Below, piece after piece: positions 3,309 through 39,809 of a stretch of 64,000 bases of DNA (positions within the stretch are counted from its first letter, which is position 1; each line of letters begins with the position of its first letter). Below the pieces are notes generated by a model, which was not told the DNA's origin, did no database searches, and saw only the letters and a program-made list of their open reading frames with translations. The stretch comes from an uncultured cyanobacterium (GTDB lineage: Bacteria; Cyanobacteriota; Cyanobacteriia; Cyanobacteriales; CAWUOF01). The translations under genes and the position numbers were made by a program. The stretch spans positions 4,800,001 to 4,864,000 of the forward strand of contig CAVUSO010000001.1 of NCBI GenBank assembly GCA_963744145.1, read 5' to 3'.

Positions 3309-3318
3309 GTGAAAAATT

Positions 3319-7292: not shown

Positions 7293-7296
7293 TCAT

Positions 7297-7343: not shown

Positions 7344-7346
7344 TTT

Positions 7347-7737
7347 AATCCAGTTCAGTTACCCGTAGGGGCAAAGCATTTCGGCGAATAAATCATTACT
7401 GAAGTGAAGAATAATATGACCGAAATGCTTTGCCCTCACCATCTATGCAGCCAGCAGATCAACCATATAAAATACCATTCAGTTACCATCTTTTTTGGAT
7501 ATCTCGGCGCAGAAGAAGGGCGAAGCATTCGGATATAATATTAACGGATTTAAGCGATTAATTATCGCCCGAATGCTTCGCCCCTACATTTAATTGAACC
7601 GGATTTTGGATATCTCGGCGCAAAAGAAGGGCGAAGCATTCGGATATAATATTACTGGTTTGATCATTCAATTATCGCCCGAATGCTATGCCTCCGGCAC
7701 GCTACGCGATCGCCCCTACATATAACTGAACCGGATT
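7347..7737. mobile_element. composite MITE/REP element between cas7 and cas5 with three GGGC(A/G)AAGCATT(T)CGG...CCG(A)AATGCT palindromes
   Basis: TIRs AATCCAGTTCAGTTA (7347-7361) and TAACTGAACCGGATT (7723-7737); related palindromes recur near 50655, 51821, 55214 and 60009. Confidence 0.7.
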
Positions 7738-7770
7738 GAGATCAAATCTAATTACAGGAGACAAATAATA

Positions 7771-9340: not shown

Positions 9341-9359
9341 TCAACAGGAATCAACCAAA

Positions 9360-9950: not shown

Positions 9951-9952
9951 AT

Positions 9953-10930
9953 ATGTCTGTTCTTTATGTAACTCAACCTGATGCTGTAGTTAGCAAAAAC
10001 TATGAAGCTTTTACTGTTGCTTTAAAGCAAGAAGATGGTTCTTGGCAAAAGCAAAGCGTACCTGCTCAAACTATCGAGCAAATGGTTTTAATCGGCAACC
10101 CTCAAGTTACTGGAGATGCTTTAATGTACGCTTTAGAATTGGGAATATCTGTACATTACCTATCTAATTTTGGAAAATATCTGGGATCGGCATTACCAGG
10201 TTATTCTCGCAACGGTCAATTACGATTAGCACAATATGGTGTTTATCAAGACAAAAATCGACGCTTAGAATTAGCAAAAGCGATCGTTACTGGGAAAATT
10301 CACAATCAATATGCCGTATTATATCGACACAACATTCGGGATAATCCCCTCAAACTAAGGGAAAAACAAGTCAAAGAACAAAACACCCTTGATGAGACGA
10401 GAGGAATGGAAGGTAAAGCAGCACAAGAATATTTTAGTTACTGGCAAGAAATGGTAGGAAATAAATGGAGTTTTAACGGTCGTCATCGTCGTCCACCTAC
10501 CGATCCAGTAAATGCTTTGTTAGGATTTGCCTATGGTTTATTGCGAGTGCAAATTACCGCTGCAATTCATCTAGCAGGACTAGATCCTTATATTGGTTAT
10601 TTGCACGAAGTAACTCGCGGTCAACCAGCAATGGTATTAGATTTAATGGAAGAATTTCGAGCTTTAATTGCTGACAATTTAATTTTATCTGTTTTGAGTC
10701 ATCAGCAGCTAAAACCAACTGATTTTAGTGAAAGTTTAGGTGCCTATCGTTTGGAAGAAAAAGGGCGGAAACTGTTTCTAGAAGCTTGGGAAACCAAAAT
10801 GAATAATGAATTCAAACACCCTACTTTTAAATATAGCTGTACCTATCGCAAATCGATTGAATTACAAGCTCGTTTACTCAGTCGTCACCTCCAAGAACAA
10901 GTTACCTATAAACCACTAACACTACGATGA
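9953..10930 (+). CDS. cas1: type I-D Cas1 integrase
   Basis: GMEGKAAQEYF, RRPPTDPVNALL, GLDPYIGYLH, DLMEEFR. Confidence 0.97.
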   Translation: MSVLYVTQPDAVVSKNYEAFTVALKQEDGSWQKQSVPAQTIEQMVLIGNPQVTGDALMYALELGISVHYLSNFGKYLGSALPGYSRNGQLRLAQYGVYQDKNRRLELAKAIVTGKIHNQYAVLYRHNIRDNPLKLREKQVKEQNTLDETRGMEGKAAQEYFSYWQEMVGNKWSFNGRHRRPPTDPVNALLGFAYGLLRVQITAAIHLAGLDPYIGYLHEVTRGQPAMVLDLMEEFRALIADNLILSVLSHQQLKPTDFSESLGAYRLEEKGRKLFLEAWETKMNNEFKHPTFKYSCTYRKSIELQARLLSRHLQEQVTYKPLTLR

Positions 10931-11220: not shown

Positions 11221-11438
11221 TGTTTCCATTGGGATTTTTGGCAAGGCGAAGCGAGGTTGAAAAACCAGGGGGTGCCGCCAAAATCTCTAGAACCTTGAAA
11301 AATCAATAGTTTTGCTCTTTTAGAGCTATCAAAAAATCGCCAAAAAGAGGTTGGGGCGATCGCTGAAATGAAGTTTTTTTGGAGACCTGCCAAAACTGCT
11401 TTTCAAAGCTAGTCCCAGTAACCCTTCTAGACCCCGCT
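11221..11438 (+). promoter_or_regulatory. CRISPR leader
   Basis: Non-coding stretch between cas2 and the first repeat with recurring GCCAAAA/TTTTGGC motifs as seen in cyanobacterial I-D leaders. Confidence 0.8.
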
Positions 11439-17400: not shown

Positions 17401-20400
17401 ATTATTAGCTTTCTCAATACTGAATCCCGGTAACGGGACTGAAACTCTGATCTATAGCTACATATATTAGATTGTTATGGGTTCTTTCTCAATACTGAAT
17501 CCCGGTAACGGGACTGAAACAACAATACTGGATCATGCAAGACCGACAAGAAAAAACAGCTTTCTCAATACTGAATCCCGGTAACGGGACTGAAACTTGA
17601 GAAAGCTTCGCTTCGGTGACTGGGTTAAAATTGTGCGATCTTTCTCAATACTGAATCCCGGTAACGGGACTGAAACATGAAATAGTTAGTATTCTTATTC
17701 TGAGATAAGAACTTTCTCAATACTGAATCCCGGTAACGGGACTGAAACGATTCAGAAGCTCGTAAATTGGGGTCTTTGGTATCACTTTCTCAATACTGAA
17801 TCCCGGTAACGGGACTGAAACTATAATTTTTATTTTTCTTTGCCCTAAAGGGGAATAATTCTTTCTCAATACTGAATCCCGGTAACGGGACTGAAACCGG
17901 AAATTATCTAGAAAATTAGTGTGATTCAAATCTTTCTCAATACTGAATCCCGGTAACGGGACTGAAACGATTTTTTCTATGAGGATAAGAACAGCGAGAG
18001 TTCTGCTTTCTCAATACTGAATCCCGGTAACGGGACTGAAACTTTTATACGCCATCGATGATAAATGCACCTATAGCTGCTTTCTCAATACTGAATCCCG
18101 GTAACGGGACTGAAACATTAATATCCCTAGCTGTTTCTTTTTGAAATTAGCTTCTTTCTCAATACTGAATCCCGGTAACGGGACTGAAACTTTTCAAGCT
18201 CCCACTCACGGAAAACTTCTTTTCTCTGCTTTCTCAATACTGAATCCCGGTAACGGGACTGAAACATTACCAAAACGAACGGCCCGAACTGGATGCTGAA
18301 CTCTTTCTCAATACTGAATCCCGGTAACGGGACTGAAACTTTCCCTGCAACCCAAGCATTAATGGTTACTTCAGGAACTTTCTCAATACTGAATCCCGGT
18401 AACGGGACTGAAACTTTGTACGGTCCATATTTTATGTTTTTCGTTCCATGCTTTCTCAATACTGAATCCCGGTAACGGGACTGAAACATTCAGATATTGT
18501 ATTGCAATAAATCAATCTGTAGCTGCTTTCTCAATACTGAATCCCGGTAACGGGACTGAAACCACTACCCACGGTCTTAACCCAGACACAGCAAGCATCT
18601 TTCTCAATACTGAATCCCGGTAACGGGACTGAAACAATCTGGGAATGACATTTCAACTAGGTCTGACGGATCGGCTACTTTCTCAATACTGAATCCCGGT
18701 AACGGGACTGAAACATTCTGCCTTGCAACCACGGGCTTGAGCTAAAAGACTTTCTCAATACTGAATCCCGGTAACGGGACTGAAACGAAGATTGGCTCAG
18801 GAAGCGAATGAAATTTCATAGGTTTCAGTCCCGCTTTCTCAATACTGAATCCCGGTAACGGGACTGAAACTGCCCACGATACTACCCACACTACCCACGA
18901 TCATTTTGACTTTCTCAATACTGAATCCCGGTAACGGGACTGAAACTTTTTATTAGAAATATAGATTTGTTTGAAACGTTGGCTTTCTCAATACTGAATC
19001 CCGGTAACGGGACTGAAACAAGAGCAGATTTTTACCCAAATTGCCTATGACGACTTTCTCAATACTGAATCCCGGTAACGGGACTGAAACAATAATTCTT
19101 CTACTTGACAAACATGGTAAGGTGGTGCTTTCTCAATACTGAATCCCGGTAACGGGACTGAAACTTTTACAGCTAACGTTTCCCCAGTTAATTTAGTTTC
19201 TGACTTTCTCAATACTGAATCCCGGTAACGGGACTGAAACCCGTCCTTATTTAGCTGTACTGGGAGGGAGTTTTTTGACAGCTTTCTCAATACTGAATCC
19301 CGGTAACGGGACTGAAACGCTTGAACTGGGGTAGCAGTAACGGTAATTGGAGGCTTTCTCAATACTGAATCCCGGTAACGGGACTGAAACGATTGTTAAT
19401 CGCGATCGCACCTACTGATCGAAACGGCTTTCTCAATACTGAATCCCGGTAACGGGACTGAAACCTGCTCAAATAGTTTTTGATTTAACCAAATTTATTA
19501 GCCTTTCTCAATACTGAATCCCGGTAACGGGACTGAAACCCAATATAATGCCTTTAAATCCTACTGTAAAACCTAGTCTTTCTCAATACTGAATCCCGGT
19601 AACGGGACTGAAACTTATCTTTTTTATATACAATTCGGACTGGTTGTGACGGCTTTCTCAATACTGAATCCCGGTAACGGGACTGAAACTTTTCCTTGCT
19701 GTTTAAGGTTGACGGGTTAGAGTGACTTTCTCAATACTGAATCCCGGTAACGGGACTGAAACACATCACAATTATCCCATAAATGACAAAACCCATCCTA
19801 CTTTCTCAATACTGAATCCCGGTAACGGGACTGAAACAATTAATCTTAACTAAGAACGAGAACGACTAAAGCTTTCTCAATACTGAATCCCGGTAACGGG
19901 ACTGAAACAAATAAAATCTTTGCTTGCAACTAAAAAGTTAAACTCCTTTCTCAATACTGAATCCCGGTAACGGGACTGAAACTATTACCTTTACTAGAGA
20001 AGTATGGTATACACCTCTTTCTCAATACTGAATCCCGGTAACGGGACTGAAACCCTTTCTGTTGTATCCAAAACAGAAAACAATCTAGTCCTTTCTCAAT
20101 ACTGAATCCCGGTAACGGGACTGAAACTCCTGACTGCCATTGTTCTGAGGGTGAGTTTTTTGATCTTTCTCAATACTGAATCCCGGTAACGGGACTGAAA
20201 CATTTCATCATAATCAATGTACTGCCAACCATTGTCAGCTTTCTCAATACTGAATCCCGGTAACGGGACTGAAACAAATCTTGTTTGGTAGTCATTTGTC
20301 TTGTCCTGCGTCTTTCTCAATACTGAATCCCGGTAACGGGACTGAAACATGACACGAGAACCATCGGGTTCTCCGCCTTTTATTCCTTTCTCAATACTGA

Positions 20401-23400
20401 ATCCCGGTAACGGGACTGAAACTTTATATTGTCGCAAAGGGGCAGGAAACTCCAGTCCGGGCTTTCTCAATACTGAATCCCGGTAACGGGACTGAAACGA
20501 GAAAATTTAGGAGCAAAAAATGAGATTAGAAGCCTTTCTCAATACTGAATCCCGGTAACGGGACTGAAACTTCAGATTTAGTAAACGACTGCTGAATAAG
20601 TCCCAACTTTCTCAATACTGAATCCCGGTAACGGGACTGAAACAATATAACCAGATCAGCAATGATCTGGTTTTTTAATCTTTCTCAATACTGAATCCCG
20701 GTAACGGGACTGAAACTATCTATATTATATAGTTACTAGGGATTCTCTGAAGTAACTTTCTCAATACTGAATCCCGGTAACGGGACTGAAACTTGCTGGG
20801 CTGATATTGTTTATCGTCAATGTACTGATTCTGCTTTCTCAATACTGAATCCCGGTAACGGGACTGAAACTAACAGAAATGATGCGATCGCACGCCCGCG
20901 AAATTTGCTTTCTCAATACTGAATCCCGGTAACGGGACTGAAACTGGTTTATACTTATGATCATAAACCACAAGAACGGATGCACTTTCTCAATACTGAA
21001 TCCCGGTAACGGGACTGAAACCACTAAATGAACAAGAGGGAATAGAATACTCACCCATCTTTCTCAATACTGAATCCCGGTAACGGGACTGAAACTTCTA
21101 CAATCTGGCTCGACACAACTTTGCTAAAGACTTTCACTACTTTCTCAATACTGAATCCCGGTAACGGGACTGAAACATATCTATAGACGGATATTCCCCA
21201 GACCATCTGGCTTGTCAACTTTCTCAATACTGAATCCCGGTAACGGGACTGAAACTTTATTAATTCATCTCTAAAAGATATAATCTCTAATCTTTCTCAA
21301 TACTGAATCCCGGTAACGGGACTGAAACGTTATTAAGTTCTTCTACATCTAGATCATGATATACATCTTTCTCAATACTGAATCCCGGTAACGGGACTGA
21401 AACTATACATCTATACCATCGATACTAGATATAGATGCTTTCTCAATACTGAATCCCGGTAACGGGACTGAAACAAGGTTAGTTATATAATATAGGTTCG
21501 AGTCCTATACTACTTTCTCAATACTGAATCCCGGTAACGGGACTGAAACTTTTTATATAGTTTGTATAGATTCACCAACAATGGATGCTTTCTCAATACT
21601 GAATCCCGGTAACGGGACTGAAACCGATTGAGTTTTTTGCCAGAAAAGATAAAAAGCTTTCTCAATACTGAATCCCGGTAACGGGACTGAAACATCCTTT
21701 TTAGTATCTATATTTTTACATAGGTAATCTTTCTCAATACTGAATCCCGGTAACGGGACTGAAACATTATATAAAAGTAAAAGATCCATTAGCGTGGACG
21801 CCTTTCTCAATACTGAATCCCGGTAACGGGACTGAAACTATTAACAACGTCAATAATAGAAATCCTTAACTACTTTCTCAATACTGAATCCCGGTAACGG
21901 GACTGAAACTTAGATGTTTTCTTATCCCTAGGCGGTATTCCCGCCACTTTCTCAATACTGAATCCCGGTAACGGGACTGAAACAATTATTTAGGAGACAG
22001 TTTATGAACCCCATTCCACTTTCTCAATACTGAATCCCGGTAACGGGACTGAAACTTGGACGGAAACATTCCCACTTCAATCGTTGAACTGAACTTTCTC
22101 AATACTGAATCCCGGTAACGGGACTGAAACGATTTTTGCCAGATTGGTCGGATCTTATCCGCCTCGCTTTCTCAATACTGAATCCCGGTAACGGGACTGA
22201 AACTTCCCAAGGAGTGGAAAACCGAGGAGCTGTAAAGCCAACTTTCTCAATACTGAATCCCGGTAACGGGACTGAAACTTTCGATTAATTCTGGATCATG
22301 TTCAGGAACTCGACTTTCTCAATACTGAATCCCGGTAACGGGACTGAAACACAGTGCCAAATGATGCTCCTAGCCACAATTCACCCACCTTTCTCAATAC
22401 TGAATCCCGGTAACGGGACTGAAACCCCCCAAAACCGGGGGATAGGATAGAATATTCATGTCCTTTCTCAATACTGAATCCCGGTAACGGGACTGAAACT
22501 TGAGAAAATAAATTCTTATCGGTTGATCAGAGAAGAACTTTCTCAATACTGAATCCCGGTAACGGGACTGAAACGACCCACAAAATTCGCTATTTTTGCG
22601 AAGGTTGCCACTTTCTCAATACTGAATCCCGGTAACGGGACTGAAACTCGTATGGCTTAAGTTGGCTAGATTCATTCCTTTCCAACTTTCTCAATACTGA
22701 ATCCCGGTAACGGGACTGAAACTCCAGGCCAATTGATTTTGCTAAATATTCCAAAGAAACATCTTTCTCAATACTGAATCCCGGTAACGGGACTGAAACC
22801 GGATTGTTGCACTACTGGCGCAGGTTGTGGTGGATGGCTTTCTCAATACTGAATCCCGGTAACGGGACTGAAACCAATGAAACGGCTCAATACTCTTTGG
22901 ATAAATTTACCGACTTTCTCAATACTGAATCCCGGTAACGGGACTGAAACTTGTGCGAGCGGTTTTGTTGGTAGTAGTCATTGTCTTTCTCAATACTGAA
23001 TCCCGGTAACGGGACTGAAACTATTTTTTTATAGTTCTTGTTTTAAGAGAAAATTGAGCTTTCTCAATACTGAATCCCGGTAACGGGACTGAAACTTACC
23101 AATCGGCGATCGCCCATCCGTACTCAAAGCAAGCTTTCTCAATACTGAATCCCGGTAACGGGACTGAAACATACACAGTAATCGTTACAGCGATTTTAAA
23201 AAAACTTTCCGACTTTCTCAATACTGAATCCCGGTAACGGGACTGAAACAACAGCAGAAGAATGTTGTCTTCTCATTAATGAAGCCGCTTTCTCAATACT
23301 GAATCCCGGTAACGGGACTGAAACTCGAACGATGTAACTATAGCCTTTTCGCTGTAAAAACTTTCTCAATACTGAATCCCGGTAACGGGACTGAAACGCA

Positions 23401-23631
23401 TCTTGGCTTAACGTTCTTGAAAACATTACTTCATCATTACTTCTTTCTCAATACTGAATCCCGGTAACGGGACTGAAACTATGCGTCTTTGTCGTCCAAA
23501 GACCACTGCTTACGGTCAGACTTTCTCAATACTGAATCCCGGTAACGGGACTGAAACTTCTTCCATCTACTCCATCTCCGTTAACTTTGCAGCACTTTCT
23601 CAATACTGAATCCCGGTAACGGGACTGAAAC
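11439..23631 (+). CRISPR. type I-D CRISPR array, repeat CTTTCTCAATACTGAATCCCGGTAACGGGACTGAAAC (37 nt), about 163 repeats / 162 spacers (manual count)
   Basis: Direct repeats with TCCCG-GTAA-CGGGA hairpin and GAAAC 3' end; spacers mostly 32-47 nt with outliers of 59 and 78 nt; no repeat variant seen by eye. Confidence 0.99.
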
Positions 23632-24180: not shown

Positions 24181-24232
24181 ATTACCCAAATATTAACTAA
24201 ATAGCCAACCAAAATTAACCCAATATTAACTT
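24181..24232 (+). promoter_or_regulatory. putative Pho box (SphR/PhoB binding site) upstream of the phosphonate operon
   Basis: ATTACCC (24181), ATTAACT (24192), ATTAACC (24214), ATTAACT (24225): offsets are multiples of 11 bp, resembling the cyanobacterial PyTTAAPyPy(T/A) consensus. Confidence 0.65.
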
Positions 24233-24297
24233 ATTTCATAAAGATTTCGTTCTACTGTCTTTTCTAAACATCTACATATAAATACAGGTGAGGAAGT

Positions 24298-25414
24298 ATG
24301 GTTAGAAAAAGCAGATGGTTTCGATTTTGCTGGGCAAGCAGCACTTTCCTGTATTTTAACAGTCGTAGTCAGTGCTTGTGTTGTCCAGAAACAAAATGGG
24401 CCAAATACAAGTGCGAGTGGAACACCAACAACTGCTCCTAGTAGTGCTGCTGCGGGAAGTGCTATTACAGTCTACACTGCTTTAGAAGATGACCAACTTG
24501 GTAAATACTTACCCTTATTTCAAAAAGTTCATCCAGAAATAAAAATTAACAAAGTTAGAGATTCTACCGGAGTAGTTACAGCGAAACTATTAGCAGAAAA
24601 AGAAAACCCTCAAGCAGATGTAGTTTGGGGACTAGCAGTTTCTAGTTTATTAGTTGCGGATCAACAAGGAATGTTAGAACCCTATGCTCCCCAAGGACTA
24701 GAAGCTGTTGGTGCTAAGTTTAAAGATGAACGTACTCCTCCCCATTGGGTAGGAATTGATGCGTGGATGTCTGCATTTTGTGTCAATACAAAAGAAATGC
24801 AAAAGAAAAATTTACCCATTCCCCAGTCTTGGGATGATCTAACCAAACCAGACTATAAAGGGATGATTGTAATGTCGAATCCAGCATCCTCTGGGACAGG
24901 TTTTCTCTCGGTTTCTGCACTTTTACAAATGAAGGGAGAAAAAGCAGGTTGGGATTACCTTGATGCGTTAGATAAAAATGTAGCTCAATATGTGCATTCA
25001 GGTTCCAAACCTTGCAAAATTGCTGGTTCAGGGGAATATCCCATTGGTATTTCTTTTGATTACCGAGCTGTAAAACAAAAGAATGATGGAGAACCCATTG
25101 AAGCAGTGTTCCCGAAAGAAGGATCAGGATGGGATATTGAAGCTAATGCTTTAGTGAAGAAAAGTACCATTAATCCAGCTGCAAAAACATTCTTAGATTG
25201 GGCGATTTCCCCAGAAATAACTAAATTATATGCCGAATCATATCCAGTAACTGCGTTGAAAAGCGGTGTACCAATTCCCAAAGGATATCCAGAAGATCCG
25301 GTGAAACAATTGAGCGAAAAGAATGATTTTAATTGGGCTGCTAAAAATCGTGAAGCAATTTTAACTGAGTGGACTAAACGCTACGACTCTAAGTCAGAAC
25401 CGAAGAAGAGTTAA
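24298..25414 (+). pseudogene. 2-aminoethylphosphonate-type ABC transporter substrate-binding lipoprotein with a +1 frameshift in the signal peptide
   Basis: GAGGAAG SD and ATG 24298 give [10 protein letters not shown]; the mature frame ([17 protein letters not shown] lipobox, [33 protein letters not shown]) is one base off and has no own start before 24671. Confidence 0.75.
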
Positions 25415-25434
25415 TCATCATATCGGAGTTTTCC

Positions 25435-26631
25435 ATGACTAATTCATCTGACGATCTGACAATTGAGCGGGATGAGCGATCGCACCAACCAACCCCAATT
25501 AAACCAGGTGCAGGAACACCACCAGCGATCGCACCCTTATCACCTAATGAAGGGGTTGAACCTTATCTCCAAATCGATAACATTCACAAAAACTTCGGTC
25601 AATTTGTCGCTCTTCGAGATATTTATCTTCATGTTTATCCGGGAGAATTTGTCTGTTTACTCGGTCCGAGCGGTTGTGGTAAAACTACCTTACTCCGAAT
25701 TATTGCTGGATTAGAACAGCAAAATACTGGTCGGATTATTCAAGGGGGAAAAGATATTTCTCGTCTACCCCCAGCAAAAAGAGATTTTGGAATTGTGTTC
25801 CAATCCTATGCGCTGTTTCCCAATTTAACCGCTGCGGAAAATATTGCTTATGGACTACAAAATGCCCAACTCCCTAAACCAGAGATTGAAACTAGAGTTA
25901 AGGAACTATTAGCGAAAGTAGGACTAGAGGGATTCGGTCCTAAATATCCTGCTCAAATGTCTGGTGGTCAACAACAAAGGATTGCTCTAGCTCGAGCTTT
26001 AGCTCTATCACCAGGACTATTGTTATTAGATGAACCCTTATCAGCTTTAGACGCAAAAGTTAGAGTCAAATTGAGAACTGAGATTACCAAACTCCAAAAA
26101 CAGTTAGGAGTCACTACTATTATGGTAACTCATGATCAAGCTGAAGCTCTAGCAATGGCTGATCGAATTGTAGTAATGGATCGGGGATATATTGCTCAAA
26201 TTGGTACACCGCGATCGGTTTACCAACACCCAAATACTCCTTTCGTCGCTAACTTTATTGGGGTGATGAATTTCATTCCTGGAGTAGTAGTTAGCGACGA
26301 AGAAGTACGATGTGGCAATATTTGCTTAAAAACTCCTCCCACCGATCTAACACCTGATACTAAGGTAAAAGTGGCAATTCGTCCTGAAGATATCAACGCT
26401 TTCAATTCAACTGACGACACCACCAATTTCCCTAATGTATTAACGACAGAAATAGAAGGAATTGAATTTCTTGGATCGGTTTATCAACTAGCTCTACGTC
26501 CAGATGGAGATGCAAAAGAACAGTTGATCTGTGAAGTGTCAATCCATGAAGCTCGTGATCTGGATTTAGCTCCCAACACTTCTTTAAAGATTCAATTACC
26601 AACCGAATTAATTCGCGTCTTCCCTGACTAA
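25435..26631 (+). CDS. aminophosphonate ABC transporter ATP-binding protein (PhnT-like)
   Basis: GPSGCGKT, MSGGQQQR, LLLLDEPLSALD; TOBE-like C-terminus; operon context. Confidence 0.9.
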   Translation: MTNSSDDLTIERDERSHQPTPIKPGAGTPPAIAPLSPNEGVEPYLQIDNIHKNFGQFVALRDIYLHVYPGEFVCLLGPSGCGKTTLLRIIAGLEQQNTGRIIQGGKDISRLPPAKRDFGIVFQSYALFPNLTAAENIAYGLQNAQLPKPEIETRVKELLAKVGLEGFGPKYPAQMSGGQQQRIALARALALSPGLLLLDEPLSALDAKVRVKLRTEITKLQKQLGVTTIMVTHDQAEALAMADRIVVMDRGYIAQIGTPRSVYQHPNTPFVANFIGVMNFIPGVVVSDEEVRCGNICLKTPPTDLTPDTKVKVAIRPEDINAFNSTDDTTNFPNVLTTEIEGIEFLGSVYQLALRPDGDAKEQLICEVSIHEARDLDLAPNTSLKIQLPTELIRVFPD

Positions 26632-26637
26632 ATTATT

Positions 26638-28404
26638 ATGACTCCATCAACCTCACCCCTAGTCCAACGGTTGTTTCCCAAAAAGATCAACCATGTCATC
26701 ACCCGTGAAGACTGGATTATGATCGCTTTGCTGGTTTTGGGAATGCTGTTTTTATTAGTGGGAATCGTTTTTCCCCTGTATCCAATTATTGTACGGAGTT
26801 TGCAAGATACCGATGGTAATTGGGTGGGATTGACGAATTATCAAAAATATCTCAGTACACCAGCTCTCACTACTTCCTTATTCAACACCTTTTTCATGTC
26901 AATTGTGACAGCGGTAATTTCAGTAGTCTTAGGTTTTATTTATGCTTATGCTCTTACTAGAACTGCAATGAGTGGTAAATTTGTCTTCCGATTACTGGGG
27001 ATTTTACCTTTATATATTCGTCCCATTGCTAATGCGATCGGACTGCAATATCTATTCGGGAATAAGGGTTTGGTGACTGAGGGACTTTTGGGAATCTTAC
27101 CAGGTTGGAATATTGGACTTTATGGACTACATGGAATTGTGATGGGTGAATTTCTCAACTGCTTTCCCCAAGCAGTAGTGATTTTAACCACAGCCTTAAG
27201 TCTAACTGATGCTAGACTTTATGAAGCAGCAGAATCTCTCCGAACTCATCCCCTCCGGACTTTTTTTACCATTACAATTCCTAGTGTAAAGTTTGGGTTA
27301 ATTAATACTATTTTCGTTTGTTTTATTGTTGCATTTACTGACTTTGGTGTACCTAAAGTAGTTGGGGGAGACTTTAATGTTTTAGCGATCGAAGTTTATA
27401 AGCAAGTAATTGGACAACAGAACTTTTCTATGGGAGCGACAATTAGTGTATTCCTCCTCTTACCAACAGTTTTTGCTTTTATTATCGATCGCATTCTCCA
27501 ACGTCGTCAAACTGCGCTAGTTAGTGCCAAATCAGTTCCCCTCCAACCAAAACCAAATCCGACTGTAGATTGGTTAATGTTTGTAGTTTGTTCTGTGATT
27601 GCTGGATTTGGTTTGATTGTATTCTTAACTGTGATCATGGCATCTTTTGTTAAAGTTTGGCCCTATGACTTCAGTTTAACTTTCAAACATTACGATTTTA
27701 GCACAGCTGGGGGTGGTGGATATGAAGCCTATTGGAACAGTATCCAAATGTCACTTTATACAGCAATTTTTGGCACGATCGCGGTTTTTGTAGGTGCTTA
27801 TTTAGTCGAAAAAGCCAAAGGTTTTCAATGGTTACGATTAATTAACTATTTCCTTTCCACTCTTCCGCTAGCTCTCCCAGGTCTAGTATTAGGGTTAGGA
27901 TATGTGTTCTTTTTCAATAAACCATTATGGCCAATTCCAGGTACAGATTTTTCCCTAGTTAATCCCTTTAATTGGATTTATAGCACCATGACAATCCTTG
28001 TGCTGTGTAATATTATTCACTTTTACACAGTCTCTTTTCTCACGGGGACAACTACTCTCAAACAAATTGATCCAGAATTTGAAGCAGTTTCTGCTTCCAT
28101 GAGAGTTCCCTTTTACAAAACTTTTTGGCGCGTTACTGTACCTTTATCTGTACCAGCAATTTTGGAAATTGGCATTTATTATTTTATTAATTCAATGGTG
28201 ACAATTTCCGCTTTAATCTTCATTTATCCACCTAGTATTCCTCTCGCTTCTGTTGCTATTATCAACATGGATGATGCGGGAGATGTTGCTCCAGCAGCAG
28301 CTATGTCTACTTTGGTAATTGCTACCAGTATTGGGGTGCGACTACTTTACTCATTTTTCACCAGAGGATTGTATCAACGCACTCAAGCATGGCTAAAACG
28401 TTAA
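26638..28404 (+). CDS. aminophosphonate ABC transporter fused double permease
   Basis: Two EAA-loop motifs (LYEAAESL, FEAVSASM), many TM segments, FTDFGVPKVVGG. Confidence 0.9.
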   Translation: MTPSTSPLVQRLFPKKINHVITREDWIMIALLVLGMLFLLVGIVFPLYPIIVRSLQDTDGNWVGLTNYQKYLSTPALTTSLFNTFFMSIVTAVISVVLGFIYAYALTRTAMSGKFVFRLLGILPLYIRPIANAIGLQYLFGNKGLVTEGLLGILPGWNIGLYGLHGIVMGEFLNCFPQAVVILTTALSLTDARLYEAAESLRTHPLRTFFTITIPSVKFGLINTIFVCFIVAFTDFGVPKVVGGDFNVLAIEVYKQVIGQQNFSMGATISVFLLLPTVFAFIIDRILQRRQTALVSAKSVPLQPKPNPTVDWLMFVVCSVIAGFGLIVFLTVIMASFVKVWPYDFSLTFKHYDFSTAGGGGYEAYWNSIQMSLYTAIFGTIAVFVGAYLVEKAKGFQWLRLINYFLSTLPLALPGLVLGLGYVFFFNKPLWPIPGTDFSLVNPFNWIYSTMTILVLCNIIHFYTVSFLTGTTTLKQIDPEFEAVSASMRVPFYKTFWRVTVPLSVPAILEIGIYYFINSMVTISALIFIYPPSIPLASVAIINMDDAGDVAPAAAMSTLVIATSIGVRLLYSFFTRGLYQRTQAWLKR

Positions 28405-28420
28405 TCAGGGAAGGTGTTCT

Positions 28421-29149
28421 ATGGTAATGATTAAATTAGTTGTTTTCGATATGGCTGGTACAACGGTTAAAGATGAACGAGAAGTAGAAAAATGTTTTTT
28501 TACTGCTGCGGAAAGGACTGATTTAACCGCTAGTTCTGAAAAAGTTGTAGCGATGATGGGATTACCGAAAAAAGTCGTGTTCCAAACCCTGTGGGATGAC
28601 CAAATTGGGAAAAATCATCCTAGTTATGCAACCAAGGTGGAAACTTCTTTTGCCGCATTTAAAGACATTTTAGAAAATCATTATCGCACCGAACCAATTA
28701 CACCAACGGAGGGTTGTTTAGAAATATTCACATGGTTAAAATCCCAGGGTATTAAAATTGCTCTGACTACAGGATTCTATCGACAAGTTACAGATATTAT
28801 CCTCGATCGCTTAGGTTGGAGTCAGGGATTAAATAGTGAATATATTGGTTCAGAACAGTCAATTATCCAAATGTCTGTGACACCTTCAGAGATTTTTAAA
28901 GAAGAGGGTCGTCCGGCACCTTACATGATTCAAAAAGCCATGTATAGTCTCGGAATTATTGACTCAAAAAACGTTGTCACGCTCGGCGATACCCCCTCCG
29001 ATCTCCAAGCTGGAATTAATGCAAATTGTCTTTATTCCTTTGGAATTACCAACGGTACTCATACCAAAGCCCAATTAACTCTACATCCTAATGATGGTTT
29101 ATTTAGTTGTTTGTCAGAATTTCAAACACATTTAGCTGGGTTGTTGTAA
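28421..29149 (+). CDS. phosphonatase (PhnX)-like HAD hydrolase
   Basis: VVFDMAGTTV motif I, MGLPK cap motif, GRPAPYMI, GDTPSDLQAG. Confidence 0.8.
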   Translation: MVMIKLVVFDMAGTTVKDEREVEKCFFTAAERTDLTASSEKVVAMMGLPKKVVFQTLWDDQIGKNHPSYATKVETSFAAFKDILENHYRTEPITPTEGCLEIFTWLKSQGIKIALTTGFYRQVTDIILDRLGWSQGLNSEYIGSEQSIIQMSVTPSEIFKEEGRPAPYMIQKAMYSLGIIDSKNVVTLGDTPSDLQAGINANCLYSFGITNGTHTKAQLTLHPNDGLFSCLSEFQTHLAGLL

Positions 29150-29155
29150 ACCACT

Positions 29156-30292
29156 ATGAGTCAAACATATCACTCGGAAGTTGCTATAGTTGGAGCCGGA
29201 ATTGTAGGTCTAGCTCATGCTTTAGCCGCAGCTAAAAAAGGAGCTAAAGTAACAGTATTCGATCGCCATCCGATCGCAATCGGTGCATCAATCCGCAATT
29301 TTGGTATGGTTTGGCCCATTGGTCAACCTACGGGAAAACTGCTCGATCGAGCTTTGCGATCGCGACAAATTTGGACTGAACTATCTGCTCAAGTCGGGTT
29401 TCATGCTGATCCCTGTGGTTCTTTACATCTAGTTTATAATCAAGATGAATTAGATGTCTTAGAAGAGTTTGTCGAAACTCGACAGGAACATCAATATGCG
29501 ATCGCTCTTCTCAAACCTGAGCAGGTAGCTGAAAAAAGTGCTGGAGCTGTAGTTCAGGGATTACTGGGAGCATTATGGAGTGGGACAGAAGTAATAGTTG
29601 ATCCTCGAGAAGCGATCGGCAAAATTCCTGATTTTTTACATCAAGAATATGGAGTGGAATTCCAGTTTAACACTGCGGTTACTCATATTTCCTATCCCAA
29701 CTTTATCGCTGGGGGAGAAAATTGGACTTGTGAGCGACTTTATGTATGTAGTGGAGCGGATTTTGAAACTCTTTATCCCAAAATTTATCAGGAAAGTGGG
29801 ATTACCAAAGTTAAATTGCAAATGCTCAGAACTAGACCTCAACCAAATTTTTGGAGATTAGGTCCTGCACTCTGTGCTGGTTTAACTCTTACCCATTATA
29901 CTGCATTTGCCCATTGTCAATCCCTAACTAAGTTAAAAACCAGAATTCAAACCGAAACTCCTTATTTTGTTGACTGGGGAATTCATGTTATGGTTTCCCA
30001 AAACAACACAGGAGAATTAACTATTGGTGATACCCATGAATATGGTTTAAATCTCGATCCTTTTGATCGAAATGATTTGAACCAATATATCCTCAATTAC
30101 TTTCAATCTTTTGCCAAAGTTCCTGCTCTAGAAATCGCTCAAACTTGGCACGGGATCTACGCCAAAATTCCTCAGAAAACTGAATTAGTAGTTCATCCAG
30201 AACCAGGAGTAACAATTATTAATGCTCTCGGAGGTGCAGGAATGACTCTATCCTTTGGTTTAGCTGAGGAAGTTATGACAATGGAGTCATAA
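29156..30292 (+). CDS. phosphonate-cluster FAD-dependent oxidoreductase (TIGR03364-like, DAO family)
   Basis: VGAGIVGLAHA, GASIRNFGMVWPIGQ, KLQMLRT, IGDTHEY, GGAGMTLSFGLAE. Confidence 0.85.
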   Translation: MSQTYHSEVAIVGAGIVGLAHALAAAKKGAKVTVFDRHPIAIGASIRNFGMVWPIGQPTGKLLDRALRSRQIWTELSAQVGFHADPCGSLHLVYNQDELDVLEEFVETRQEHQYAIALLKPEQVAEKSAGAVVQGLLGALWSGTEVIVDPREAIGKIPDFLHQEYGVEFQFNTAVTHISYPNFIAGGENWTCERLYVCSGADFETLYPKIYQESGITKVKLQMLRTRPQPNFWRLGPALCAGLTLTHYTAFAHCQSLTKLKTRIQTETPYFVDWGIHVMVSQNNTGELTIGDTHEYGLNLDPFDRNDLNQYILNYFQSFAKVPALEIAQTWHGIYAKIPQKTELVVHPEPGVTIINALGGAGMTLSFGLAEEVMTMES

Positions 30293-30295
30293 ATT

Positions 30296-30739
30296 ATGAG
30301 TTCACAAATTCGATTGAGAGTAAGTGTAGTGGGGTTATTTATAGACAACAATGAAGTATTACTTTTGCATCAAACTACTCCCCCAGAACCAAATTGTTGG
30401 GATTTACCAGGGGGAGGATTAGAACCTGGTGAAACTTTAATGAATGGACTCCAACGAGAAATTCAAGAAGAAACCGGGTTAACTCAGTTTCAGGTAGAAG
30501 GTTTACTCACAGTAATCGAAAGCTTTTTTCCCGAACCTGAGCAAAGGATGATGCACACTTTAAATCTGGTCTACAAATGTAAAATTACCCCCAAACCTTT
30601 AACCTTTACCACTAGCGATCCTGAAGTTGGTTCCCAAGGAATTCAATGGTTAGCGATCGCGACTCTCAATCGGGAAATTTGTTCAACTCGAACTTGGAAA
30701 GCTTTAATAGCTGCTGGATTAGTTGATGATTGTTTGTAA
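30296..30739 (+). CDS. NUDIX hydrolase
   Basis: Nudix box GGGLEPGETLMNGLQREIQEETGL; starts 3 nt after the oxidoreductase stop. Confidence 0.9.
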   Translation: MSSQIRLRVSVVGLFIDNNEVLLLHQTTPPEPNCWDLPGGGLEPGETLMNGLQREIQEETGLTQFQVEGLLTVIESFFPEPEQRMMHTLNLVYKCKITPKPLTFTTSDPEVGSQGIQWLAIATLNREICSTRTWKALIAAGLVDDCL

Positions 30740-30769
30740 TTAATTTTGCGATGCGGATGTGAGGAGATA

Positions 30770-32500
30770 ATGATGTTTAAATTGTTTCAGTCTAGTGTAA
30801 AATTAAATCCCCTAGGATTAGGTTTGATTTCTTTGCTATCAGCAACCAGTTTAGCAAGTGCAGCAGCAGCAGTTCCCACTAAACAAAACCATGATCAACT
30901 TAATTTCGCAAATTCTTACCAAGGGTTAGATAAACTAGAGCAATCCCTTAAATTAGCTCAAACTGCTGACCAAATAACACCAATTCAACCCCTAAATTCG
31001 ACAGGAACACAATTATCTCAACCCAATCTCCAGACAACGGAAGAACCAAATGACTCAATAGAACAAGTTACATCTGTTTCTCAACTCACAGATGTTGCTC
31101 CCACCGATTGGGCATTTCAAGCACTACAATCTTTAGTTGAGCGTTATGGTTGTATAGCAGGATATCCAGACAGAACTTATCGAGGTAATCGCGGAATTAC
31201 TCGCTATGAATTTGCGGCTGGTTTAAATAGTTGTATGGATAAAATTCAGCAATTAATCGGAGCAGGAGGTAGTAATACAATCCAGAAAGGAGACTTAGAA
31301 ATCCTCAAAAAACTCCAAGAACAATTTGCTGGAGAATTAGCTACTCTTCGGGGTCGAGTTGATTCCCTCGAAACCCGGACTGCGACCCTTGAAAGTCACC
31401 AGTTTTCCACCACTGTCAAACTAACCGGAGAGGCTATTTTTAACCTTTCTGATGTTTTTGGAAATACGGTTGGGAGTAACAAAAATAATGTTAATGCTAA
31501 CCTAGGCGATCGTCTTCGTTTATATCTGGATGGAAGTTTAATCGGTAAAGATAACTTCCATATTGGTATACAAGCCAACAGTATAACCCCCTATAATACC
31601 AGCGTTACTGGTACTAACATGACCCGTTTTGGTTATGATGGTAGTAGCAATAACACCGTTGATTTGTTTGAATTGTCTTACTCTTTTCCTGTCGGTAATA
31701 AACTCAATTTAACCCTCAGTGCTTATGGGATTGAACCCTACGATTTAATTACCAATTTCAGTCCTTTTAGCAGCAGTGGTACTGGTTCTTTATCTCGTTT
31801 TGGACGTTTTAATCCGGTCTATCGTGCTACCAGTAATGGGACAGCTTTAGCTGCTACCTACAAACTCTCCGATAAAATTGCCCTGGAAGCAGTTTATCAA
31901 GCGGGAGATGATAGTAGTAATCCTAGTCCTAAAAATGGCTTATTTAATGGTCGTTATAAAGCGATCGGTCAAGTGGTTTTTACTCCCTCACAAATGCTAT
32001 CTTTTGGTGTTCTTTATGCCCATGCTTATTATCCCTCTAGTGATGTGAGTATATCTGGTGGTACAGGGAGTTTATTTGCGATCGCACCCTTTGGTTCAAG
32101 ACCAACTTCAGCAGATGAAGTAGGTGGACAATTACAATTAAGACCGACTCCTAAATTGTATTTAGGGGGATGGTATGGAGCTTTCTTTGCTCAAGATGCC
32201 AAAATTTCTAGTCAGTCAGCAACTGTGATGACTGGATCGGTTTATATTGCTTTAAAAGATCTAGGGAAAAAGGGTGCTTTAGCGACTCTATTAGTTGGTG
32301 TACCACCGAAAGTAACTGACACCACTCTTAGTGCCCGTAAAGATAAGGATACCTCAATTCATCTTGAAGGATGGTATCGTTATCCAGTCAACGATCACCT
32401 TTTCCTTACTCCTGGAATGTTTGCTATTTTCAATCCTGAGCATAATAACAAGAATGATACTGAAATAGTGGGCGCACTTCGGGCTACCTTTAAGTTTTAG
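30770..32500 (+). CDS. cyanobacterial SLH-domain outer membrane porin (SomA/OprB-like)
   Basis: SD GAGGAG before ATG 30770/30773; signal peptide; VTSVSQLTDV..WAFQALQSLVERYGCIAGYPD; C-terminal LRATFKF. Confidence 0.92.
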   Translation: MMFKLFQSSVKLNPLGLGLISLLSATSLASAAAAVPTKQNHDQLNFANSYQGLDKLEQSLKLAQTADQITPIQPLNSTGTQLSQPNLQTTEEPNDSIEQVTSVSQLTDVAPTDWAFQALQSLVERYGCIAGYPDRTYRGNRGITRYEFAAGLNSCMDKIQQLIGAGGSNTIQKGDLEILKKLQEQFAGELATLRGRVDSLETRTATLESHQFSTTVKLTGEAIFNLSDVFGNTVGSNKNNVNANLGDRLRLYLDGSLIGKDNFHIGIQANSITPYNTSVTGTNMTRFGYDGSSNNTVDLFELSYSFPVGNKLNLTLSAYGIEPYDLITNFSPFSSSGTGSLSRFGRFNPVYRATSNGTALAATYKLSDKIALEAVYQAGDDSSNPSPKNGLFNGRYKAIGQVVFTPSQMLSFGVLYAHAYYPSSDVSISGGTGSLFAIAPFGSRPTSADEVGGQLQLRPTPKLYLGGWYGAFFAQDAKISSQSATVMTGSVYIALKDLGKKGALATLLVGVPPKVTDTTLSARKDKDTSIHLEGWYRYPVNDHLFLTPGMFAIFNPEHNNKNDTEIVGALRATFKF

Positions 32501-32604
32501 GGAATATCACTTAGGGGAATGGGAACAGACAAGATGTCCGTTCCACAAGAAAATGACTGGGAAGGGCAAAATGCCCTTCCTATTTATTTTAACATCAGTT
32601 TCAC

Positions 32605-32927
32605 GAGTATATCAGTGTTGTCTGTGATGTGAGATATAGTGAGTTCATTAAGGTGATCTGTGGGGCAGGGCGGGTTTATTAAGGTTATTTGTATGTGGCA
32701 AATTAATCGGTGAACCCGCCCCTACAGGTGATCAACCAGGATCTGGGATTGTTTACCAAAAAGTCGATGAATTTATGATGACAATCAACCAGGATTTGTA
32801 GGGGCAGGTTCACCAATCAATTCTGATCCAAACAGATCACGGACAGGCAAGATGCCTGTCCCACTCATAAACCTGCCCAACCAAACGAGATAACTGACTG
32901 TACTTCATTAACAGGTCATCCGCTGTA
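32605..32927. mobile_element. composite REP-containing MITE, copy 1
   Basis: AAGGTGATCTGTGGGGCAGGGCGGG...GAACCCGCCCCTAC and GTAGGGGCAGGTTCACC...AAACCTGCCC; ends TGTACTTCATTAACAGGTCATCCGCTGTA; homologous to 34674-35048 and 52445-55072; left boundary approximate. Confidence 0.7.
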
Positions 32928-32931
32928 TTCT

Positions 32932-32973
32932 CTATCAACTATTTGTACACCTTTTGAGCTAATGGGAGATTAA
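32932..32973 (+). pseudogene. C-terminal remnant of a PIN-domain toxin gene
   Basis: Reads LSTICTPFELMGD*, a typical ICTPxEL PIN C-terminus; cut off by the MITE. Confidence 0.5.
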
Positions 32974-32979
32974 ATAATT

Positions 32980-33168
32980 ATGTGGCACGATGAAGTCTTA
33001 GCAGAAATTTACAAATACCGAGAAGAGTACGCTAAATCCTTTGATTACAATTTACACGCGATCGTTGAAGATTTAGAAAAAAAACAAGCTGCTAGTGGCA
33101 GGCAAATTATTTTCACACCGATCGTCAAACCTACTCAGCAAGAAAACAAATCTTTAGCTGAAGCTTAA
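32980..33168 (+). CDS. small protein of the kind usually paired with PIN toxins (orphan)
   Basis: MWHDEVLAEIYKYREEYAKSFDYNLHAIVEDL pattern; GGAGA upstream. Confidence 0.65.
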   Translation: MWHDEVLAEIYKYREEYAKSFDYNLHAIVEDLEKKQAASGRQIIFTPIVKPTQQENKSLAEA

Positions 33169-33256
33169 AGTTACGTCCTGTTCGGGTTGATCTATAATTT
33201 TATAGAGACGATTCAGTAACATAACTGTTGAAAAGTAAGTTGAGTTTTAACTGTCC

Positions 33257-33808
33257 ATGTCACAAACAAATCTAGAGACCGTACTGCATATTCTCCAGTC
33301 TTTGGGACACGAGCAGTATGGGGGAGAACCCGTCAGTCAATTAGAACACGCTTTACAATGTGCTAGTCTGGCTCAAGATCAGGGAGCAGATCCGGAACTT
33401 ATTACAGCTTGTTTGTTCCATGATTTGGGGCATTTAGTGTCTAAATTAGGGGAAAATGCCGCAGTACAGGGTTATGATAATCGTCATGAATATATAGTCA
33501 TTCCCTGGTTAAAAGACCTATTTTCAAGTAAGGTAATTGAACCAATTCGTCTTCATGTCCAAGCCAAACGTTATCTTTGTTTAGTAAAACCTGGTTATTA
33601 CTCAGAATTATCAGCTGCGTCTCAACAAAGTTTAGCATTGCAAGGAGGAATATTTTCTGTAGCCGAAGCTGAGGATTTTATTAAGTTACCTGATGCAGAA
33701 AATGCAATTCAACTGCGATTATGGGATGAGCAAGCTAAGGTTCCTGGAAAAATAATTCCTACTTTGCATGATTTTATTCCTATCGTTCATGGTAGTATAT
33801 TAGTGTAG
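33257..33808 (+). CDS. phnZ: PhnZ-type HD-domain diiron oxygenase (phosphonate C-P cleavage)
   Basis: YGGEPVSQLEHALQ, FHDLGH, HE, LHVQAKRYL, LSAAS..SL..QGG, LRLWDEQAK. Confidence 0.85.
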   Translation: MSQTNLETVLHILQSLGHEQYGGEPVSQLEHALQCASLAQDQGADPELITACLFHDLGHLVSKLGENAAVQGYDNRHEYIVIPWLKDLFSSKVIEPIRLHVQAKRYLCLVKPGYYSELSAASQQSLALQGGIFSVAEAEDFIKLPDAENAIQLRLWDEQAKVPGKIIPTLHDFIPIVHGSILV

Positions 33809-33902: not shown

Positions 33903-34301
33903 CTAGGGAATAAAAAGCCTGCCAACGCCCATATAGCTATCTATATTGATGACAATCTCCACCAAACGATCAACACATTGCTCTCGATACTCAGTCTCAT
34001 CTATACGACTCATATCTCCAATCGTCACAATCGGAAAAGAACCCAAAGAATTATGATCGCGCATTACCTGCTCCAAAGAATCTTTACCCTTCATATTGCG
34101 ATTGGCAGTCAAAACCATCATTTGATTTGCTTGAGCATAATCCCAAACTACGAGATCGCTGCTATTTTTTGATAAACCAGCCTCCCTAAAAGTGACAAAC
34201 TCAATATTAATTAGATCCAGCCAACCACGCTTAATCAAAATGCCAAGCAGCACAACGGCATAGCCATCTAAATTAAAATCAACCAAAAAATTCACGCCCA
34301 A
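33903..34301 (-). CDS. DUF5615/VapC45-like PIN-like toxin
   Basis: FLVDFNL, SDLVVWDYAQ, VLTANRN; overlaps the upstream DUF433 gene. Confidence 0.7.
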   Translation of the reverse strand: MGVNFLVDFNLDGYAVVLLGILIKRGWLDLINIEFVTFREAGLSKNSSDLVVWDYAQANQMMVLTANRNMKGKDSLEQVMRDHNSLGSFPIVTIGDMSRIDETEYREQCVDRLVEIVINIDSYMGVGRLFIP

Positions 34302-34660
34302 ATCAAACTACGCTCCTTTTTTTGCTGCTCCAATCTTGCTAAAAGCTCCAATTGTGAAGCAGTGCGTGGCTTAGTTCTAATTCGCTCAAAATGTTCACGA
34401 TTTTTATCTTGCCAATATTGATAAATCTCCTCCCGCGTTTTCAATATCTCTTGATATTCAGCTTCCACCTCAACAGGATGATCCGAAATATAAACCAAAG
34501 CCACATTGATCTCCTCATCCGTCAAATTAAAGCGATCGCGGATCAACTTCGGCGGATAATCAGCCCTGAGTAAATCCATCACATCATACAAAGAGATCCG
34601 AGAACCAGAAATAGTTAGTCCCCGCTCAGTCCGAATAATATTTAGCTCTTGATTAGTCAT
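34292..34660 (-). CDS. DUF433 antitoxin-like protein
   Basis: TISGSRISLYDVMD, LTDEEINVALVYI..H..EVEAEY. Confidence 0.8.
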   Translation of the reverse strand: MTNQELNIIRTERGLTISGSRISLYDVMDLLRADYPPKLIRDRFNLTDEEINVALVYISDHPVEVEAEYQEILKTREEIYQYWQDKNREHFERIRTKPRTASQLELLARLEQQKKERSLIWA

Positions 34661-38744: not shown

Positions 38745-39809
38745 GTGTTAGCAGCATTACTGTACGGACAAAAAGATTTACGTCTAGAAATTGTCGCTGA
38801 CCCCACTCCCGATGTTGGAGAAGTGGTGATCCAAGTAGCAACAGCTACCACCTGTGGGACAGATTTAAAAGTTTGGCGTCGTGGGGGTCATGCGAAAATG
38901 TTGCGTCCACCGACGCTATTTGGTCATGAAGCTTCAGGCAAAATTGTAGCATTGGGAGCGAGTGTAACTGGTTGGCAAATTGGCGATCGCGTAGTAGCAA
39001 ATAATTCAGCTCCTTGTCTGAATTGTTTTTTTTGTCGTCATCAAGAATATTCCCTCTGTTCTCAGTTAACCTGGAATAATGGTACTTTCGCCGAATATCT
39101 TAAAATCCCTGCACCAATCGTCCAACAGAATTTATTACCAATTCCTGACCATTTACCTGATCCGATCGCCGCTCTCACCGAACCTTTAGCTTGTGTACTA
39201 CATGGAATCGCTCGCTCCCACATTCGGTCTGGAGATCGGGTAGTAGTGATCGGGGATGGTGCGATTGGACTAATGTTTGTGGCGGTACTAGCGGCTCAAG
39301 CAGTTGAGCATATAGGAGAGCAGGGGAATAAGCAAGTATTTTTATTTGGTGGCAATCATCAACGTCTAGAAATTGGGAAACATCTGGGTGCAACTCAAGT
39401 CTTCAATTATCATCAAATTGAGGATATCCCCATGATCGTTAAAGAATTAACAGAAGGTTGGGGAGCAGATGTCACCATTGAAGCAACCGGGATACCAACA
39501 GTCTGGGAAACCGCGATCGCGACAGTTCGTCCTGGTGGAACCGTAAATTTATTTGGTGGTTGTCCCAGGGATACTACCATTACCATCAATACTGAACTGC
39601 TTCACTATAGTGAACTTACCCTGAAAGGTGTGTTTCACAATACTCCTCAATATGTCAGAACCGCATTAAATCTGCTCGCTAGTCGCCAAATTCCCTTTGA
39701 ATTATTAATTAGTGAACAGAGACATTTAACCGATTTAGAACAGGTGTTTCAGGATATGAGCGATCGGAAAATTATTAAAGCTGCCATTATCCCGCAATCA
39801 ACGGTCTAA
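38745..39809 (+). CDS. zinc-dependent alcohol dehydrogenase (MDR family)
   Basis: CGTDL, GHE, CxxCxxC, EPLAC, GDGAIG. Confidence 0.92.
   Translation: MLAALLYGQKDLRLEIVADPTPDVGEVVIQVATATTCGTDLKVWRRGGHAKMLRPPTLFGHEASGKIVALGASVTGWQIGDRVVANNSAPCLNCFFCRHQEYSLCSQLTWNNGTFAEYLKIPAPIVQQNLLPIPDHLPDPIAALTEPLACVLHGIARSHIRSGDRVVVIGDGAIGLMFVAVLAAQAVEHIGEQGNKQVFLFGGNHQRLEIGKHLGATQVFNYHQIEDIPMIVKELTEGWGADVTIEATGIPTVWETAIATVRPGGTVNLFGGCPRDTTITINTELLHYSELTLKGVFHNTPQYVRTALNLLASRQIPFELLISEQRHLTDLEQVFQDMSDRKIIKAAIIPQSTV

Follow-up and report, generated by a model that had tools for sequence, protein, structure and literature searches.

The breakdown of aminoethylphosphonate (AEP) without the transaminase PhnW has been described before. 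PbfD enzymes, with a TIGR03364 member among them, convert both N-methyl-AEP and AEP to phosphonoacetaldehyde by oxidation, and PbfD2 together with PhnX was shown in 2023 to form a PhnW-free pathway in vitro (Zangelmi et al., PMC10590968). PbfD homologues are reported there to occur in cyanobacteria. An hpnW-phnX-phnSTU-phnHD cluster that lacks phnW is known from Achromobacter (PMC11203657). In hydrolytic clusters, phnZ is an alternative to PbfA for (R)-1-hydroxy-AEP (HAEP), and the two are never found together (PMC8154272, Table 1, 2021). Furthermore, an HpnWXZ pathway (TIGR03364, TIGR03351 and TIGR03366) has been named (bioRxiv 10.1101/2020.11.04.368217). Here we describe a locus of this kind in 64,000 nucleotides of DNA from an uncultured cyanobacterium (contig CAVUSO010000001.1, positions 4,800,001 to 4,864,000; hereafter the window), which is part of the main contig of a genome of 7.7 Mb (G000) with a completeness of 96.3%. 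A cyanobacterial host is also indicated by its SomB-type porins and by the cyanobacterial origin of its closest homologues. Seven forward-strand genes at 24298-32500 are likely to form a phosphate-starvation operon that scavenges phosphorus from aminoethylphosphonates. We read it as belonging to the known PbfD-PhnX (HpnWX) type, with a NUDIX hydrolase as an optional passenger.

Operon content and predicted route

The seven genes are phnS2, phnT2, phnU2, a PhnX-like HAD gene, a TIGR03364 oxidoreductase gene, the NUDIX gene and an SLH-OprB porin gene (Table 1). All of the genes listed in a sequence-only reading of this DNA were recovered on the forward strand at the places it gave, and so was their tight spacing, with 3-33 bp between consecutive genes from phnS2 through the porin.

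Table 1. Features of the locus, numbered from the first nucleotide of the window
Feature	Position	Strand	Evidence
Probable SphR/Pho box	24181..24232	+	4/5 TTAAC-like cores, 11-bp register, two pairs 33 bp apart
phnS2-type aminophosphonate ABC substrate-binding lipoprotein	24298..25414	+	TIGR03261 479.8 bits, cut-off 392.75
phnT2 ABC ATPase	25435..26631	+	TIGR03265 500.6 bits, cut-off 457.7
phnU2 fused permease	26638..28404	+	TIGR03262 711.5 bits, cut-off 593.25
His-less PhnX-like HAD	28421..29149	+	TIGR03351 167.1 bits (cut-off 218.9), TIGR01422 91.8 (cut-off 220)
PbfD-type (HpnW) FAD amine oxidase	29156..30292	+	TIGR03364 458.3 bits, cut-off 285.1
NUDIX hydrolase, rare cyanobacterial clade	30296..30739	+	PF00293, Nudix box residues 40-62 intact
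SLH-OprB (SomB-type) porin	30773..32500	+	NF033921 over cut-off, PF04966, PF00395
Predicted intrinsic terminator after porin	32558..32582	+	11-pair stem, T-rich tail; consensus match only
Multi-copy intergenic repeats with inverted arms, outside the pathway	32600..32930		about 25-125 genomic matches per 20-bp bin
62-aa open reading frame, outside the pathway	32980..33168	+	at least 4 paralogues elsewhere in genome
PhnZ-family HD di-iron oxygenase	33257..33808	+	TIGR03276 232.9 bits, cut-off 214.6

In the route that we propose, the substrate would pass the outer membrane via the general SomB-type porin, presumably co-expressed, and, judging from the transporter families, would be imported by PhnS2/T2/U2. 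The oxidase, whose flavin adenine dinucleotide (FAD)-binding GxGxxG motif reads GAGIVG at residue 13, would act on N-methyl-AEP, and probably on AEP, with phosphonoacetaldehyde, H2O2 and either methylamine or ammonia as the products, by analogy with the two other PbfD enzymes (from A. baumannii and M. fucicola) for which this chemistry has been demonstrated (PMC10590968). The HAD would then cleave the carbon-phosphorus (C-P) bond through a Schiff base on Lys50 and a phosphoenzyme on Asp10, giving acetaldehyde and phosphate. PhnZ, probably encoded on a separate transcript, would handle (R)-1-hydroxy-AEP, which is the role of PbfA in sister clusters.

How does this compare with the described systems? 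The closest is PbfD2-PhnX of Mariniblastus fucicola, in which, likewise, a phosphonatase-type HAD adjoins an FAD oxidase of the TIGR03364 family and PhnW is absent. It differs in that the HAD here lacks the canonical His, whereas the coupled assays of that study used V. splendidus PhnX, and in that we find a cyanobacterial host, probable SphR control and the additional NUDIX and porin. The proposed HpnWXZ pathway is matched by an HpnW over its cut-off and by a HAD nearest to TIGR03351; however, this HAD scores under the TIGR03351 cut-off and no HpnZ (TIGR03366) is over its cut-off in the genome (best match 121.6 bits, cut-off 328.1). The phnWX and phnWAY clusters that carry phnZ without phnY* (PMC8154272) share the PhnZ add-on and its exclusion with PbfA, and the Achromobacter cluster (PMC11203657) has the same four functional parts, but both have a canonical PhnX, and the Achromobacter cluster is under LysR regulation. 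A NUDIX and a porin go unmentioned in the accessible descriptions of these clusters. The operon is thus a modest variant of a known system. The sequence-only reading had seen in it an undescribed metabolic system, a view that gives way to the published PbfD-PhnX route and phnZ add-on (PMC10590968, PMC8154272). Its idea of a two-branch, transaminase-free pathway, with a PhnW-free oxidase and phosphonatase on one side and PhnZ for already hydroxylated substrate on the other, holds up; this logic is already in print, because it is contained in PMC10590968, PMC8154272, PMC11203657 and the HpnWXZ proposal.

The oxidase was found in 5 of 400 genomes sampled across the phylum and in 17 of 400 sampled across the order (about 4% of the order sample; G000 excluded). 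Its cyanobacterial copies form one clade with a support of 98 in a quick tree. We compared 40 cyanobacterial PbfD loci, five of them assigned by tree, after leaving out the duplicates L099 and L102, the second contig of one genome (L036) and L271. The HAD is a neighbour in 35 of these loci, PhnS2 in 21, phnZ in 10, the NUDIX in 9 (one a fragment), PbfA in 5, a ureidoglycolate-lyase-like gene in 5, the porin in 4 and a PF01663 phosphodiesterase in 4. One genome from another family (G526) has the same seven-gene order at 68-81% identity, with the porin at 49% and phnZ elsewhere.

For the HAD, TIGR03351 is the best-scoring family, under the curated cut-off, and other cyanobacterial copies score 168-171 bits; it is also under the cut-off of the canonical PhnX model, TIGR01422. 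Its sequence matches in the PDB are phosphonatases only, and the top fold match of its model is the phosphonatase 1swv (template-modelling score, TM, 0.81), with other HADs close behind. Among 70 HADs encoded beside the oxidase (window included), the His is absent in 64 and the lysine is kept in 69; the six with a canonical KxxH motif are planctomycete or acidobacterial. The same His-less HAD adjoins PbfA, the (R)-HAEP ammonia-lyase, in five cyanobacterial loci (L026, L034, L039, L040 and L041), which also have PbfD and lack both PhnW and PhnZ. In all five the gene is divergent but falls in the PbfA cluster; the one scanned, from L026, is over the PbfA cut-off (NF049939, 637 bits, cut-off 525). 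Because the His-less HAD is linked to two different producers of phosphonoacetaldehyde, PbfD and PbfA, it probably consumes this compound. Its pairing with PbfA, and its replacement by canonical PhnX in other loci, lead us to regard it as a probable phosphonoacetaldehyde hydrolase.

The lack of PhnW and PhnY that had been noted for the cluster extends to the genome, where no PhnW over cut-off and no PhnY* were identified. The best PhnW match, at 137 bits against a cut-off of 401, is a class V transaminase that scores highest with BhcA, below all cut-offs, and none of 31 PbfD-bearing genomes gave a PhnW match at 1e-50 (many are incomplete). Neither PhnJ of the C-P lyase nor PbfA is over its cut-off in this 96.3% complete genome. 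There is no PhyH gene near phnZ; the genome's two PF05721 loci are over 1 Mb distant and look unrelated, one exceeding the cut-off for ectoine hydroxylase and the other being split inside a glycosyltransferase region. Two further candidates were set aside. A Zn-alcohol dehydrogenase at 38745-39809 (+) is the best TIGR03366 match, and was considered as HpnZ or PbfG, but it is far under the cut-off and has no close relative in related loci. A PhnD-family match at 5.60 Mb of contig C1 adjoins a sensor-type gene, with no phnCDE operon by inspection of the open reading frames.

Pho-box-like repeats lie in the promoter region, some 65-115 bp before the start of phnS2. The published consensus consists of tandem 8-bp boxes with 3-bp linkers (PMC1906773). 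Besides a tandem-repeat family, only three genomic loci score as high, with a core pattern that was chosen after seeing the site, and two other top-scoring periodic sites have no recognisable phosphate genes downstream. The orthologous operons L017 and L269 are preceded by similar in-register repeats. The genome also groups a PhoB-like regulator with a PhoR-like kinase and phoU. Given the register of the cores and its echo in L017 and L269, control by Pho (SphR), as the sequence-only reading had suggested, is probable. On contig C1, pstS lies apart from pstCAB, neither having strong SphR-type repeats, and PhoX was not found in the genome.

The importance of this locus lies partly in how such systems are counted. 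At review level, few cyanobacteria are credited with phosphonate catabolism, mainly through C-P lyase (PMC10291797). Surveys based on phnX probably undercount the carriers, as the usual HAD beside the oxidase escapes standard PhnX models. Cultured carriers are available for further study, e.g. Tumidithrix helvetica PCC 7403, which has the NUDIX, Nodosilinea nodulosa PCC 7104, which has PbfA, and Gloeocapsa sp. PCC 7428.

Weighing the proposed reading

Several points weigh against a Pho-controlled PbfD-PhnX operon with a passenger NUDIX. Among 21 other upstream regions only that of L017 passes the strict core test, the strict three-repeat score of the site is unremarkable with no three perfect consecutive boxes, and no strong repeat was seen upstream of the genome's own pstS or pstC. 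The oxidase is 27-29% identical to Acinetobacter homologues and 51-52% to planctomycete ones, and its tentative status as an AEP-competent PbfD2 rests on these identities. The HAD misses both curated cut-offs and has no Cys22, His56 or Tyr128, so its substrate could differ. Lastly, at least four different gene orders place the NUDIX next to phnZ or the oxidase, which is more than a passenger needs.

Is the NUDIX hydrolase then part of the pathway? It belongs to a tight clade, the named members of which are all cyanobacterial. The sequence-only reading had tied it to the cluster, and the enrichment is real. The NUDIX is found in 12 of 30 PbfD-bearing genomes (loci chosen by PbfD). In the order sample of 400, PbfD occurs in 17 genomes, the NUDIX in 15 and both in 5, where 0.6 are expected; put differently, the NUDIX is found in 5/17 genomes with PbfD versus 10/383 without (Fisher p 1.7e-4, overstated by kinship). 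Among metagenome loci with the NUDIX, 13 of 30 adjoin cluster genes, equal to 7 of 21 groups at 90% identity. The dedication, on the other hand, is not borne out, as 10 of the 15 NUDIX-bearing genomes lack PbfD; in seven of these the NUDIX stands beside a gene that we take to be asnS. Furthermore, it is missing from 31 of the 40 cyanobacterial PbfD loci and from all non-cyanobacterial ones. The cluster-linked copies are not one clade (five changes in a quick tree, weak support), linked and unlinked copies being intermingled. The closest folds are NudI/MutT-like at 24-27% identity, and searches for a substrate by fold or language model gave generic matches only.

These observations bear on a variant of the same core route, in which the NUDIX would serve the pathway by releasing AEP, or its N-methyl or hydroxy derivative, from nucleotide-activated forms. 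Cytidine monophosphate (CMP)-AEP is an example of such forms, which would be either imported or made by mis-activation in the cell. The enrichment with PbfD, the several arrangements that bring the NUDIX next to phnZ or the oxidase, and a PF01663 phosphodiesterase/nucleotide-pyrophosphatase gene that recurs nearby all favour such a role. However, two thirds of the NUDIX-bearing genomes in the order sample do without PbfD, nearly half (7/15) have the presumed asnS as the neighbour, most PbfD loci do without the NUDIX, the cluster-linked copies form no single clade in the weakly supported tree, and the fold matches are generic; we consider this variant unlikely. A literature search found no paper linking Nudix with CMP-AEP, PbfD or phosphonate catabolism, most subscription papers being outside its scope. 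A joint reading goes further: the NUDIX would release AEPs from CMP- forms into an SphR-controlled pathway whose phosphonatase, lacking the His56/Tyr128/Cys22 apparatus, would form and resolve its Schiff base by a different proton-relay mechanism with the invariant Asp18 and Tyr88 as candidates. We consider this joint reading unlikely too.

Overall, the NUDIX looks most like an optional accessory inherited along with the cluster, and a role specific to phosphonates, though possible, has no support. It would most likely be a general nucleotide hydrolase with no required pathway step, possibly serving to recover phosphorus or to clean up nucleotides oxidised by the H2O2 that the oxidase produces. 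A strict tie between the NUDIX and phnZ was also considered, and is weakened by loci that have one but not the other. At one locus (L120, 679-8462) a NUDIX of this clade lies beside an ISL3 transposase, and genes for a phnZ-like protein, a TonB receptor and a metallophosphoesterase are found upstream of it; this copy has perhaps been moved by the insertion element.

A second alternative concerns the HAD, which may act on another 2-oxo-phosphonate or on a phosphate ester, so that the route would differ from PbfD-PhnX. The motifs DMAGTTV and MGLPK (ending at Lys50) are present as the sequence-only reading had reported, and the canonical His is indeed absent, with Val53 at the position of His56 of B. 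cereus PhnX. In alignments the HAD keeps D10, A12, K50, T117, R164, D190 and D194. Five of these (D10, K50, R164, D190 and D194) do not vary among 28 homologues and match Asp12, Lys53, Arg160, Asp186 and Asp190 of PhnX, for which catalytic roles have been described (PMC7916636). In place of Cys22, His56 and Tyr128 there are a Glu/Val region, a Val and a Phe. The absence of these three residues and the two missed cut-offs would suit a different substrate, for example 1-hydroxy-phosphonoacetaldehyde, which the oxidase would make from hydroxy-AEP, and the TIGR03364 description quoted in PMC10590968 does suggest HAEP as a substrate. That said, the HAD accompanies PbfA, an enzyme that yields phosphonoacetaldehyde; next to oxidases of this one family, it and canonical PhnX replace each other; and PbfD enzymes make phosphonoacetaldehyde from N-monomethyl-AEP (M1AEP; PMC10590968). 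We therefore regard a different substrate as quite improbable. A literature search on TIGR03351, PhnX-like and HpnX found no assay of the His-less subfamily, again with most subscription papers outside its scope.

A third alternative arises from phnS2, which has a one-base frameshift in a G run near codon 12 (about 24332-24334) that the sequence-only reading had not mentioned. The ATG at 24298 and the remainder of the gene are in different frames. The truncated product has a 90% cluster partner on a Logan contig, the 371-aa P0121, which is intact, identical beyond residue 12, and starts in the upstream frame of phnS2. Of 100 further conserved genes checked in the same assembly, 2 also have split frames. 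The frameshift is probably an assembly error in the G run. That it is real, and that the operon is decaying in this strain with import lost, is very improbable: the assembled phnS2 has no in-frame start or signal peptide and the one public run compared lists no indel at the site (site coverage not shown), but the intact and otherwise identical Logan protein, the homopolymer run, the split frames elsewhere in the assembly and the intact state of all remaining operon genes argue against it.

The porin and phnZ

The porin is the probable last gene of the operon. The sequence-only reading called it dedicated and suggested that it may be phosphonate-selective, and neither description is supported. 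The genome has 11 paralogues of which this is one, and a single clade of cluster porins is rejected (approximately unbiased test, p-AU 0.008) when five of these are compared with 41 others in a quick tree that leaves out three long-branch paralogues. The porin is present in 4 of 40 related loci. Cluster porins lie downstream of the operon in the window and in G526, and upstream in three Pseudanabaenaceae loci; the latter three are the top matches to the window porin in their genomes, though not reciprocally. A strain-specific insertion was rejected, as G526 has the same gene order. From tree and gene order, the porin appears to have been recruited at least twice, which suggests that its co-expression is beneficial. 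Cyanobacterial Som porins are induced by phosphate limitation, for example som of Crocosphaera (PMC12260270). The two are alike in belonging to the SLH-OprB family, plausibly co-induced with genes for phosphorus uptake; the porin here differs in being placed inside a phosphonate operon.

The phnZ gene is present downstream on the forward strand, as the sequence-only reading had it. Missing from that account were the predicted terminator, the repeat of about 330 bp and the 62-aa open reading frame between the porin and phnZ. Because of these intervening features, phnZ is probably a separate transcription unit, although terminator-like sites in the region are, in total, at chance level. The 62-aa frame has no match in related PbfD loci and no NCBIfam match at 1e-25. 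The PhnZ-family protein is below the cut-offs for TmpB and GmPhnZ1. Its residues H31, H55-D56, H77, H100 and D157 align to the PhnZ and TmpB structures, and we presume these to be the di-iron ligands. The enzyme would cleave (R)-1-hydroxy-AEP, as its family and context suggest. PbfA (6 loci, one borderline) and PhnZ (41 loci) share none of 85 loci, many of them on short contigs, and no PhnZ match was found in the five PbfA genomes. This exclusion agrees with PMC8154272, Table 1.

Related loci and flanking regions

Other genes recur in the related loci. In 5 of the 40 cyanobacterial loci, from at least two families (L019, at 11231-11875, L022, L027, L270 and L279), a ureidoglycolate-lyase-like gene (PF04115) is interspersed with those for the HAD, the oxidase or PhnZ; L264, from a third family, has it too. 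As a possible new breakdown factor, it is arguably no weaker a candidate than the NUDIX. Elsewhere, a PF01663 phosphodiesterase-like gene and a different ABC importer replace PhnS2/T2/U2 or adjoin the NUDIX and phnZ (L018, at 4234-9170, L028, L042, L045, L125 and L271). The PF01663 gene has no NCBIfam match at 1e-15, and so is not recognised as PhnA; it may release phosphonates from esters. In several cyanobacteria, the genes for PhnZ or PbfD also adjoin C-P lyase genes, phnJ and phnM among them (L258, L261, L101, L273 and L274).

Two features flank the locus. Directly 3′ of phnZ, at 33903-34660 on the reverse strand, is a DUF433 and DUF5615 gene pair, a probable toxin-antitoxin module. On the other side, 98-10930 of the window holds what we take to be a type I-D CRISPR (clustered regularly interspaced short palindromic repeats)-cas locus, with genes that we read as WYL, cas3, cas10d, csc2, csc1, cas6, cas4 and cas1. 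A very long CRISPR array with a 37-bp repeat (56 copies within 19500-23630) extends to 23630, about 550 bp short of the phosphonate promoter.

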